A stretch of DNA of 64,000 bases from Methanobacteriota archaeon. Its GTDB lineage: Archaea; Thermoplasmatota; E2; DHVEG-1. The notes beneath the pieces are model-generated. The model did no database searches. It was not told the DNA's origin and saw only the letters and a list, made by a program, of their open reading frames with translations. The stretch's first letter is position 1. Every line of letters starts with the position of its first letter. Position numbers and translations under genes: made by a program. The stretch lies in assembly GCA_963769885.1 (NCBI GenBank), contig CAVYNH010000006.1:320001-384000 (forward strand). The letters run 5' to 3'. Shown here piece after piece: positions 1,067-33,131 of the stretch.

Positions 1067-1088
1067 TCACCCACGACGGAGCCCCGCG

Positions 1089-1117
1089 TTCGAACCTTTT
1101 CAAAAAAACTATTTAAT
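1089..1117 (+). promoter_or_regulatory. Repeated promoter motif, copy 1
   Basis: TTCGAACCTTTTCAAAAAAACTATTTAAT; near-identical copies at 1341 and 1494. Confidence 0.6.
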
Positions 1118-1137
1118 CCAAGAGCCAGAATAAAAAT

Positions 1138-1229
1138 AGGCATGGGAGGCAAGACAGGCCGACTCCGTTCTCCTCTTCTTCATGTCCTGGGAAACCCTTC
1201 ACATGCCCTGCCCTGCCTCCCATCTGCCT
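1138..1229 (+). ncRNA. Candidate hairpin sRNA, unit 1
   Basis: Starts about 21 nt after the TATA box; AGGCATGGGAGGCA pairs with TGCCTCCCATCTGCCT, or alternatively with CCTTCACATGCC; pyrimidine-rich loop. Confidence 0.4.
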
Positions 1230-1340
1230 CCATCACAATCCCACAACCCACTACCTCACGAGGTAACCAGCCAACGAGCGGAGGAGTCACCACCACCCCA
1301 CACGCCTGCCCCCCCGGCTCCTCCCCGCTCCCCCCACGCA

Positions 1341-1370
1341 TTCGAATCTTTTCAAAAAAAATATTTAAAT
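1341..1370 (+). promoter_or_regulatory. Repeated promoter motif, copy 2
   Basis: TTCGAATCTTTTCAAAAAAAATATTTAAAT. Confidence 0.6.
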
Positions 1371-1391
1371 CTACAACGCCTGATACAATTC

Positions 1392-1485
1392 AGGTATGGG
1401 AGGTAACCATGCGGGGCACACGCCTTGTATTCCCCTTCACCGCCTTGTGTCTTCATCATCCCCACACGGTACCCCATACCTTTTT
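1392..1485 (+). ncRNA. Candidate hairpin sRNA, unit 2
   Basis: AGGTATGGG...CCCATACCT closing stem, extended imperfect pairing, then TTTTT; starts about 22 nt after the TATA box. Confidence 0.45.
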
Positions 1486-1493
1486 CCGCCCTG

Positions 1494-1521
1494 TTCGAAG
1501 CTTTTCAAACAAACTATTAAA
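1494..1521 (+). promoter_or_regulatory. Repeated promoter motif, copy 3 (likely drives a leaderless mRNA for the 1547 gene)
   Basis: TTCGAAGCTTTTCAAACAAACTATTAAA about 25 nt before ATG 1547. Confidence 0.6.
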
Positions 1522-1546
1522 CACATCCAAAAATAAACCACGACCC

Positions 1547-28204: not shown

Positions 28205-28616
28205 TGACAAGCCTCCAATAGGATATTCCGAGTGGGGACAATGTGCTGGCTCATCATTAATTTTATTCCAAAAAGATGGGGAAGGGAGGAGGAGGGGTTC
28301 TTACGGCTGGAGAAGAGTCAGGAAAATGGATACCGTCACCTCTCCTCCCGTTGGAATCGTGACCTGCTCCATTGGGGAGGCTGCAATAGGATGGAGCAGA
28401 CCACCGGTTATCGTCAGTGTGGCCGTCACGCTCATCTCATGGTTCGTCAGGTTCTTCACCGACTCCAGGAGCAGGTATGGATCCTTCATGCTTATAAAGG
28501 GTCAGAAAATGGTTGGTTTTTTCCAAACGTTTGGGGGCATCCTCCAGGGGAGAGGAGGGGTTCGCATCCTTAAAATATTACTGCTTGTATTCCTGTCCCA
28601 GACAGATGGTGATTGC

Positions 28617-31081: not shown

Positions 31082-32554
31082 ATGATCCGAAGACTCCTCG
31101 TTCTCACCACCGCCGCCCTCCTGATTACAACCTTGCTGCCGGTCCCGATTCAGGCGACACCGAAGACCGGCCCTGCCCTACCTGATTGGCCCGACGGGAC
31201 CTTCCAGGGGACCTGGCAGAGTCCACTCATCAGCGGCACCCTCTCCGGCACCTTCGACCAAGGCCGACGTAACACCATCGGCACCTTCTCCGCCACTTGG
31301 ACCACCGCCAACACCACCGAACACCTCACCGGCTTCTTCCTCGGCCGCCTCTTCTTCGGCACCCGCAATGGCACCAACCAGGCCTTCTTCGGCCATATCA
31401 CCACCAGCGACACCAACTTCACCGGCCGCCTCCTCCTCCAAGGCGAAGGCCTCATCCGCATCACCGGCCACTACCAAGCCAGCTTCCTCCCCGCCCTCAC
31501 CGGCCCATATCATATCGGCGTCCAAAGCTTCCACCTCGTCGACCCCGACCGCCCCGAAAACTTCACCACCGACCCCATGGACGTCCGGGAATTCATGGTC
31601 AACCTCTGGTACCCACTCGACCCCAACGCCTCCGGCACCCCAGACCTCTACATGGACCCCCCGACATTCCTGTGGCTCAAGAACCAGTCCCCTATCCCCC
31701 TCATCTCCATCCCCAACAACGCCTATGAATTCGTCCATCCGCACGGCCACCAAGGCGCCCTCATCGCCCCCGGGCTGCACCCGATCCTCGTCTTCTCCCC
31801 CGGCTATGACGGCGTCTACCAGATCTACACCTCCCTCATCGAAGACCTCGCCAGCCACGGCTTCGTCGTCGCCGCCATCAACCACCCCTACGTCTCCGGC
31901 ATCACCGTCTTCCCCGACGGCCACACCGTCGACATCGCCACACCCCCCACCGACCCCGTCGAACGCGTAGCCTTCATGAACATGTCCCTGCGGACAATCG
32001 TAGAAGACGCCAAGACCACCATTGATTTCCTCACCGGACTGAACGCAACCAACTCCACCTTCGGCGGCACCCTCGACCTCGGATGCGTCGGCATGTTCGG
32101 CCACTCCTTCGGCGGCGGCAACACCGGCGTCTGCCTCCTCGAAGACGCCCGCGTCAAGGCCGGGCTGACCCTCGACGGCTACTTTACTCCTAGCTTCATG
32201 AACGGCACCATCGACAAGCCCCTCCTCATGATGGTCCAGGAGGCACGCTTCGCGAACGACAGCAACACCATGTACGTCTGGAACCACACCTCCGCCGACG
32301 TCTTCAAGGTCGGCATCAACGGCTCCACCCACTACGCCTTCACCGATGTCGGCGTCCTACTCTCCCACCTCGTCCCCCTCATCCCCCCCAAGCTCCTCGG
32401 CTTCGGGACAATCCCGCCGAAGCGCATGGTGAACCTCACCCGAACCTATGAGGTCGCCTTCTTCGAAGTCTACCTCGACGGCAGGCCCCTCCAGGACCTC
32501 CTCAACCTCTCCGCCCGCTTCCCTGAAGCCATGGTCGACTACCGACTCGGGTAG
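31082..32554 (+). CDS. Secreted alpha/beta hydrolase (PAF-acetylhydrolase-like)
   Basis: Signal peptide; FSPGY, LASHGFVV, GHSFGG, LDG, HYAFTD. Confidence 0.9.
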   Translation: MIRRLLVLTTAALLITTLLPVPIQATPKTGPALPDWPDGTFQGTWQSPLISGTLSGTFDQGRRNTIGTFSATWTTANTTEHLTGFFLGRLFFGTRNGTNQAFFGHITTSDTNFTGRLLLQGEGLIRITGHYQASFLPALTGPYHIGVQSFHLVDPDRPENFTTDPMDVREFMVNLWYPLDPNASGTPDLYMDPPTFLWLKNQSPIPLISIPNNAYEFVHPHGHQGALIAPGLHPILVFSPGYDGVYQIYTSLIEDLASHGFVVAAINHPYVSGITVFPDGHTVDIATPPTDPVERVAFMNMSLRTIVEDAKTTIDFLTGLNATNSTFGGTLDLGCVGMFGHSFGGGNTGVCLLEDARVKAGLTLDGYFTPSFMNGTIDKPLLMMVQEARFANDSNTMYVWNHTSADVFKVGINGSTHYAFTDVGVLLSHLVPLIPPKLLGFGTIPPKRMVNLTRTYEVAFFEVYLDGRPLQDLLNLSARFPEAMVDYRLG

Positions 32555-32561
32555 ACCTATC

Positions 32562-33017
32562 ATGCCGCAGGCCGTCACCTGTGTCCTCATGCATCAGGGA
32601 AAGGTGCTACTCCTGCGTCGCAGCGACCGCGTCCGCACCTACAAAGGCCTCTGGGGCGGCGTCGCCGGCTACGTCGAACCCGGCGAACAGCCCCTACAGA
32701 CCGCCTACAAGGAGCTACGCGAGGAGACCGGCCTCACCCCCGACCTCGTCCGTCTCGTGGCCCAGGCAGAGCCGATTGCCTTTACCGACGTCTACCAAGG
32801 TGAACGGTACGACTGGACCATCCATCCCTTCCTCTTCGAACTCCTCAAGGATAAAAACCTCAAGATCGACTGGGAACACTCAGAGTACCGCTGGGTAAAA
32901 AACAAGGACCTCCCCGCCTACCAGACCGTCCCCCATTTCCCGGAGACCGTTCGACGCCTAACGCGGAAGAAGCGGATGGGGGAGCGTGGAGGTGTGGTGA
33001 GGAAGAGAGAGGAATGA
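32562..33017 (+). CDS. NUDIX hydrolase
   Basis: GYVEPGE..AYKELREETG Nudix box; WEHSEYRW. Confidence 0.92.
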   Translation: MPQAVTCVLMHQGKVLLLRRSDRVRTYKGLWGGVAGYVEPGEQPLQTAYKELREETGLTPDLVRLVAQAEPIAFTDVYQGERYDWTIHPFLFELLKDKNLKIDWEHSEYRWVKNKDLPAYQTVPHFPETVRRLTRKKRMGERGGVVRKREE

Positions 33018-33040
33018 GAAATTGCAGGCTCCCCATCCAT
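32974..33040 (-). ncRNA. Candidate hairpin sRNA, unit 3
   Basis: Minus-strand TATA (TTTAAATA, 33061-33068); GGATGGGGAGC...GCTCCCCCATCC stem; loop contains CACCTCC. Confidence 0.45.
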
Positions 33041-33131
33041 AAAAAAAGTCTCTTTGTGAGTATTTAAATCTTCTCTTTACGATAGTTATCCATTTCATGA
33101 AAAAGAAAAGAGAAGAGCCCTCCTCCCAGGC

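Follow-up and report, generated by a model that had tools for sequence, protein, structure and literature searches.

A probable small RNA gene tail-to-tail with a NUDIX hydrolase gene, from a hairpin family with an anti-Shine-Dalgarno-like loop core in sediment Thermoplasmatota

Background

Small RNA (sRNA) families in which variable stems present an invariant loop resembling the anti-Shine-Dalgarno (anti-SD) sequence have been described in Alphaproteobacteria as the cuckoo RNAs (CcsR1-4/RSs0680, alpha-r14; PMC4615179). Among archaea, the intergenic sRNA41 and sRNA154 of Methanosarcina mazei carry anti-RBS loops that mask ribosome-binding sites (RBSs) and repress translation (PMC5867862).

Here we describe a hairpin in the window (the whole stretch of 64,000 nucleotides that was analysed) which resembles both systems in part. 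With the cuckoo RNAs it has in common the multi-copy siblings, the compensatory stems, a C/U-rich anti-SD-like loop as the sole conserved sequence and a partly kept genomic context. The cuckoo RNAs, however, are bacterial and consist of two to four adjacent hairpins, each with CCUCCUCCC, whereas here a single hairpin is found (with nested helices in some paralogues) that has a different and longer core motif (CUCCUCACCACCU) and an archaeal BRE/TATA promoter, and shows no sequence homology. Membership of the cuckoo/CcsR group was rejected, given the single hairpin, the absence of CCTCCTCCC from the loop and the lack of an Rfam match. The likeness to sRNA41 and sRNA154 is one of description: RBS masking by a loop is also the mechanism that we propose for the present family. 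Those RNAs differ in coming from another phylum, in having experimentally supported targets and in being single genes instead of an order-wide family of siblings.

Bacteria are already known to have RNAs of this kind, siblings in which the stems covary and an anti-SD-like loop is invariant; the family itself is uncatalogued, being absent from Rfam 15. A literature search on sRNAs in Thermoprofundales/MBG-D found nothing relevant.

Results

A sequence-only reading of the window had proposed, on the minus strand, a TATA box followed after 22 nt by a stem, a pyrimidine loop and a closing arm, and had taken this for an independently promoted small RNA gene. The layout was confirmed when the sequence was read again, and the conservation of the promoter together with the strand evidence (both described below) supports the gene. 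Positions 32974-33040 of the window very probably hold the gene for a hairpin sRNA of ~65 nt on the minus strand, with its own archaeal BRE/TATA promoter and with relatives in a family. Its parts are:

33069-33078, minus strand: BRE-like purine-rich stretch AAAGAGAAGA, abutting the TATA box on its upstream side (sequence read)
33068-33061, minus strand: archaeal TATA box TTTAAATA, 22 nt before the stem (sequence read)
33038-33040, minus strand: predicted transcription start site, 22-24 nt past the TATA box, with the onset of conservation at GGATGGGG
33038-33028, minus strand: 5' arm of the terminal stem, GGATGGGGAGC, covarying with the 3' arm across paralogues (sequence read and RNAfold)
33027-32986, minus strand: loop of 42 nt, ~80% pyrimidine (sequence read and RNAfold)
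32988-33007, minus strand: family core as found in the window copy, CTCTTCCTCACCACACCTCC (family consensus AUCUCUCCUCACCACCUYC)
32994-32988, minus strand: anti-SD 7-mer CACCTCC, inside the core and in the predicted loop
32985-32974, minus strand: 3' arm of the terminal stem, GCTCCCCCATCC (sequence read and RNAfold)
32897-32902, minus strand: T6 run, the first one beyond the stem on the RNA strand (at a distance of 72 nt), possibly the terminator of a longer transcript

Two details of the original description, otherwise exact, had to be amended. The first six bases of the loop string (CTGCAA) had been left out, and what had been read as a perfect helix of 11-12 bp is split by one bulged C into 8 bp and 3 bp. 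The hairpin is the minimum free energy (MFE) fold calculated by RNAfold (-18.4 kcal/mol, z = -2.9) and outperforms all of 200 dinucleotide shuffles.

Only 313 TTTAWATA sites exist on the two strands of this 2.09-Mb genome, a rarity that puts the chance of meeting one in a placement window of 10 nt at ~7.5e-4. CACCTCC alone, by comparison, is present in 3% of the pyrimidine-rich 42-mers of the same genome, and because of this background in a skewed genome the 7-mer is weak evidence on its own. The correctly spaced TATA box is the more telling of the two. At the BRE position, relatives have an A-rich stretch (ATAAAAAAG).

An identity as C/D-box or H/ACA guide sRNA was rejected, since the flagged sequence contains neither a C box (RUGAUGA) nor a D box (CUGA) nor a pseudouridylation pocket and ACA with K-turn, and Rfam gives no match. 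ARAGORN found no tRNA or tmRNA. Searched with Rfam 15, the whole window yielded no match at gathering scores, and around the element only chance matches appeared at E-values up to 10.

The hairpin faces the 3' end of a NUDIX hydrolase gene, and a thymidylate kinase gene (tmk) lies upstream:

32448-33017, plus strand: NUDIX hydrolase ORF, convergent with the RNA gene (Pfam PF00293, E = 7e-22)
33785-33132, minus strand: tmk, upstream of the RNA gene and on the same strand (Pfam PF02223, E = 5e-31)

The NUDIX protein was used to search 40 relatives, and the DNA that follows each orthologue was inspected. Promoter and hairpin are kept downstream of NUDIX, on the opposite strand, in the loci of 16 of 20 relatives, at which the NUDIX proteins are just ~50% identical. 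The consensus of these loci is GGATGGGGGAGTTATCCTAATTTTTTCCTATCTCTCCTCACCACCTCCACGCTTCCCCATCC, preceded at 22-26 nt by an A-rich BRE and TTTATATA; conservation sets in with the first G of the stem and ends with its last C. The NUDIX stop codon and the RNA gene are separated by just a few nucleotides in most relatives, and tmk is present in 15 of the 20 loci. Judged by these comparisons, the hairpin is not a product of chance.

A covariance model (R1) was built from 35 orthologues, the flagged sequence among them, and it finds the flagged element with 54.1 bits (E = 2.8e-10; C6:352974-353038, i.e. window 32974-33038, minus strand). The genome as a whole contains four strong matches to R1 (42-54 bits), all of them preceded at 22-31 nt by a TTTAWATA of their own. 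Three of these are paralogues that were not part of the training set:

C2:10465-10530: own-genome paralogue, 50 bits
C4:174190-174253: own-genome paralogue (locus L055), 43 bits
C1:76048-76103: own-genome paralogue, 42 bits

A further, weak match to R1 occurs in the window at 28284-28349 on the minus strand (19 bits, E = 0.34). It has neither TATA box nor core and is probably a chance hit in G/C-skewed coding sequence.

Beyond this genome, R1 is positive in all 67 genomes of the same family (f1) and in three of the four of a sister family (f2), with 1-6 copies per genome, or up to ~8 when additional paralogues found by pattern are included. The idea of a dispersed family in multiple copies is borne out by these counts. 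In other families of the class only 2 of ~80 genomes were positive, both weakly, and none of 140 Thermoplasmatota genomes outside the order gave a match. When one genome per prokaryotic species was scanned with a pattern, 29 loci emerged, of which 28 come from MAGs titled Thermoplasmata, Thermoplasmatales, Thermoplasmatota or 'Euryarchaeota' (sediments, cold seeps); the sole exception is a contig titled Ruminiclostridium sp. Among the matches listed for a broader pattern there are again only such sediment MAGs, including SM1-50 and SG8-52-3, which we take to be Marine Benthic Group D genomes. The pattern also matches more than 120 metagenome contigs, and no viral contig matches the core-motif pattern. 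As far as these searches of sequence data reach, the family is confined to one order of uncultured sediment Thermoplasmatota (MBG-D-type MAGs).

Within the order the members differ considerably in shape. A core-motif search of the complete genome G151 yields ~8 members, some with quite different stems (GAGAAGGGG/CCCCUUCUC, GGGAAGGAGGG.../...CCCUUCUUCC). Five longer members (L219-L222 and L226, from G151 and G008) measure ~90-110 nt and have outer stems UUGGGGAGUUG/CAACUCCUCAA with an extra nested helix, while their U-run and core are the same as in the rest of the family. R1 misses such longer forms, and the copy numbers obtained with the model are consequently lower bounds.

The stem shows compensatory differences already within the genome itself (GGAUGG/CCAUCC, AGAUGG/CCAUCU, GAAUGG/CCAUUC). 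In an alignment of 86 members (69 distinct), 8 of 10 stem pairs vary on both sides and 97.8% of stem cells are paired; none of 500 column shuffles reaches the observed values and slid controls are far lower. These figures are to be read with the alignment in mind, which is model-fitted and made of related sequences, with few independent events and with pairs 3-7 near-invariant. Only some classes can pair the 5' arm with a CCYAUC that follows the U-run, and this pairing was therefore dropped as a family feature.

The same alignments bear on the strand. At stem pair 9, 44 distinct sequences have G.U, 12 have G-C and 9 have A-U; on the other strand its commonest state would be an A.C mismatch, so that the pairing pattern fits the strand driven by the TATA box. 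Over 112 distinct members, G.U pairs number 122 on the TATA strand against 23 on the complement, the TATA-strand stem is the more stable one in 93, and 86 have a TTTAWATA-type box at 22-27 nt before the stem. Given the G.U bias, the fixed distance between TATA box and stem and the A-rich BRE upstream, we accept the minus-strand reading on comparative grounds.

The loop is conserved in one half only. Its 5' half varies in sequence and length and usually contains a U-run, which is T5-T10 in most relatives and only TTT in the window copy. The core follows: anchored on it, 180 distinct members align as ...UUUUUU-N3-AUCUCUCCUCACCACCU(U/C)CA..., and CUCCUCACCACCU is at least 98% conserved among them, a value to which the search patterns contributed by fixing the core themselves. 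Members found by R1 and not by the patterns show only slight core deviations. Across the family the core ends at a constant 15-17 nt from the 3' end and is predicted to be open, with a mean unpaired probability of 0.94. The window copy is somewhat deviant: its core, CTTCCTCACCACACCT, has one extra T and one extra AC and ends 14-16 nt from the 3' end. Variants include CACUACC, CCUUACC and CCAUCUCC, with CUUCCUCACCACACCUCC in the window copy, and several core variants (CACCUUC, CAUCUCC, CACUACC) replace C by U, so that pairing with G is retained.

The comparison with ribosomal RNA was made with the genome's own 16S gene, which ends in ...GGATCACCTCCTacg (tail GGATCACCTCCT; GGAUCACCUCCU). CACCTCC, which had been put forward as a match to the 16S anti-SD, is indeed identical to this tail. 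As a description of the family, an anti-SD loop applies in part: the exact CACCUCC is present in the window copy, but in just 38 of 112 distinct members, about a third. The most numerous class has CACCUUC, which could pair with GGAGGUG by means of one G.U, and another has CACCUCA. The SD of the clade is of the GGAGGUGA type, with GGAGGTGA found upstream of start codons, and at 9-14 nt before crude start calls the strongest enrichment among 5-mers is that of GGAGG, GGTGA and AGGTG, on which the own genome and 1.65 Mb of relatives' DNA agree. The predicted loop of the window copy (CACCTCC) thus exposes a sequence complementary to the genome's own SD motif. A start codon in antisense (CAT), which had been listed among the features of the loop, is not conserved across the family.

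The own-genome 16S (C6:784010-785477) and 23S (C5:179601-182799) genes lie on different contigs, the former at a contig end, and the 16S genes of relatives are only partly assembled.

The overlap with the NUDIX gene in antisense, also noted earlier, is real (44 nt) and incidental, a run-on of the ORF. The homologues end ~12 residues past the VPH motif, which corresponds to ~32973 in the window; they align from residue 38/39 to about residue 172-179. In the own genome, which is GC-rich, and in the sister genome the last ~14 NUDIX codons extend into the RNA gene. As the ORF has no stop at the homologues' end in these two, the overlap is a by-product and not a design. At the other end, the first 38 codons of the ORF (32448-32561) are Ser/Thr/Pro-rich and have no counterpart in any homologue; by alignment, the true start is probably M39, the ATG at 32562. 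Past the tmk stop there is a T-rich stretch at ~33097-33116.

Elsewhere, too, family members tend to meet genes tail-to-tail. Of 72 members that could be assessed, 50 have a convergent ORF of at least 100 codons whose stop lies close to the RNA 3' end, for the most part 7-21 nt beyond. Class B, the second of two ancient sets of paralogues (GAAUGGGG...CCCCAUUC, then UCUCC; L055 and L090-L107), is tail-to-tail with an HD phosphohydrolase gene (HD + HD_assoc_2; PF01966 and PF19276) in 9 of 10 loci. Of the own-genome copies, the one on C1 faces an M14 carboxypeptidase gene and the one on C2 lies upstream of a co-directional alpha/beta-hydrolase gene. NUDIX, tmk and the HD hydrolase make three nucleotide-metabolism genes that adjoin family members.

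In 2-kb bins across the whole window, both GC skew and AT skew are very strong. They alternate between blocks a few kb long, in step with the orientation of the genes, with GC skew ranging from -0.38 to +0.47.

Discussion

All members have one architecture: a variable, covarying terminal helix closes a large loop, and the 3' half of this loop displays the near-invariant core AUCUCUCCUCACCACCU(C/U)C, predicted to be unpaired. The evidence presented here covers conservation, promoter placement, stem covariation, strand, copy number and distribution. In the explanation that we favor, the RNA would act in trans through this exposed C/U-rich core, which holds or nearly holds the 16S anti-SD: the core may pair with purine-rich RBSs of the GGAGGUGA type, and such pairing would hinder binding of the 30S subunit. 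Since the anti-SD-like loop design is that of the cuckoo/CcsR RNAs and of sRNA41 and sRNA154, pairing in trans with RBSs is the best-supported reading. Nonetheless, we place the explanation as a whole (sRNA gene plus anti-SD loop) slightly short of an even chance, and the pairing with RBSs, plausible because the clade uses SD sites of the GGAGGUGA type, is more tentative still. The at least 13 invariant nucleotides go far beyond what SD pairing needs, and about two thirds of the members do not have the exact anti-SD 7-mer. With respect to the gene itself, the internal T5-T10 of most relatives could terminate archaeal transcription before the core is reached, and the stem is not consistently followed by a T-run (in 65 of 180 members, the next 40 nt contain none of T4 or longer).

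Target searches are of limited help here. In the own genome, 343 sites pair at 14 or more of 16 positions (Watson-Crick and G.U), and such a search does not discriminate because the coding strands are extremely G/A-rich. For three complete, AT-rich relatives, the exact 13-mer complement of the core was found in the sRNA genes themselves only, and with 1-3 mismatches allowed, the hits are either additional paralogues or sites within coding regions. With the own 16S and 23S rRNA, the core forms duplexes no better than shuffled cores do. It is this lack of an extended target, together with the excess invariance and the internal T-runs, that keeps two other accounts of the minus-strand RNA alive: a protein decoy and an effect in cis.

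As a decoy, the RNA would not address mRNAs but a protein that binds the 16S 3' tail (candidates are the KH-domain aDim2p/Pno1 and Nob1, at the small-subunit 3' end), or its U-run and core would bind an Sm-like (SmAP) protein. An invariance of 13-19 nt across up to ~8 paralogues with differing stems is easier to reconcile with one constant partner of this sort than with a multitude of short seeds in mRNAs, and both the absence of a perfect 13-mer complement elsewhere in the three complete relatives and the conserved position of the U-run beside the core point the same way. Yet the gene neighbourhood indicates no protein partner, the U-run is nearly lost in the window copy, and the likeness to the 16S tail (core UCACC-ACC-UCC against UCACCUCC) is partial, CACCUUC being the most numerous class; overall we regard this account as unlikely. 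A bolder form seems decidedly unlikely to us, in which abundant '16S-tail decoys', near-copies of the small-subunit 3' end (UCACC-ACC-UCC), would soak up SD sites or a 16S 3'-end protein and so shift the balance of SD-dependent and leaderless translation in the whole cell, or gate late 30S maturation, the paralogues tail-to-tail with NUDIX and HD genes linking this to nucleotide status. The many convergent ORFs might instead be the key: by cis-antisense action or transcription interference on the convergent gene (NUDIX, or HD for class B), or by 3'-UTR pairing, the RNA would set the level of that mRNA. Class A is syntenic with NUDIX and class B with the HD phosphohydrolase, these partners and tmk all belong to nucleotide metabolism, and since no terminator follows the stem before the T6 at 32897-32902, a transcript of ~140 nt antisense to NUDIX is possible. 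This does not explain why unlinked paralogues carry the same loop core; moreover, 22 of the 72 members have no convergent ORF and sequence conservation stops at the stem end, and an effect in cis is rather improbable.

Two more accounts do without a minus-strand RNA. It had been recognized from the outset that the stem might act only as a terminator for the converging genes; in that case the purine-rich plus strand would be the functional one, as a 3'-UTR or terminator hairpin, and the 'TATA' would be AT-rich terminator context. The element does lie just past convergent stop codons, and AT-rich relatives have, on the plus strand, a T6-7 run ~35 nt beyond the hairpin, which is the A-rich BRE read in complement. 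In this window, however, the plus strand continues after the hairpin with A7 and has no T-run, the G.U pairs turn into A.C mismatches (122 against 23) with weaker plus-strand stems in 93 of 112 members, a fixed TATA-to-stem distance of 22-27 nt is a property of promoters, and members that have no convergent gene retain the TATA box. We consider a plus-strand function very unlikely. The lowest probability, close to negligible, goes to a leaderless ORF of 40 aa (33040-32918, minus strand) or a MITE with terminal inverted repeats. The ATG at 33040 is ~21 nt past the TATA box, as for a leaderless gene, and the arms resemble terminal inverted repeats, but the ORF has no Pfam match and its frame stops after 5 codons in relatives (ATGGGGGAGTTTTCCTAA), micro-ORFs on the plus strand shift frame between relatives, and the copies are syntenic across genera instead of scattered, with none found in viral contigs. 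By its lack of a conserved reading frame, the coding reading is effectively refuted.

MBG-D-type archaea are abundant in marine and lake sediments, and to our knowledge riboregulation is almost unexplored in uncultured sediment Thermoplasmatota. The family offers annotation pipelines for the order a new RNA to include (67 of 67 genomes, 1-8 copies each). It would also exemplify in archaea the design, first described for the bacterial cuckoo RNAs, in which a variable stem carries an invariant anti-SD-like loop, and possibly provide a handle on the tuning of SD-dependent translation in archaea that mix SD-led and leaderless mRNAs. What makes it interesting is that it is universal within the order, that its core is strict and that its members sit tail-to-tail with genes for nucleotide hydrolases.

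Other hairpin units in the window

Two hairpin units at 1138 and 1392 had been thought to be mirrored by the flagged element. The general architecture is alike: a TATA box, ~22-24 nt, a stem starting with xxAUGGG, a pyrimidine-rich loop and a closing CCCAUxx. They are not members of the family, though, as they have no core and score at most 6 bits with R1 even with filters off (against 42-54 bits for true paralogues), and blastn-short in the own genome revealed no link between them and the flagged element beyond 15-mers. Their promoter type differs as well: window 1085-1530 contains a promoter-like motif, TTCGAAnCTTTTCAAAAAAAnTATTTAA, three times in tandem, and copies one and two drive hairpin units of ~90 nt. 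The two hairpins fold well, and promoters and hairpins, not spacers, are conserved in the sister genome only (69% overall). These units are separate candidate sRNAs that have only general architecture in common with the flagged element. The motif TTCGAAnCTTTTCAAAAAAAnTATTTAA alone recurs at several places in another genus (G015).
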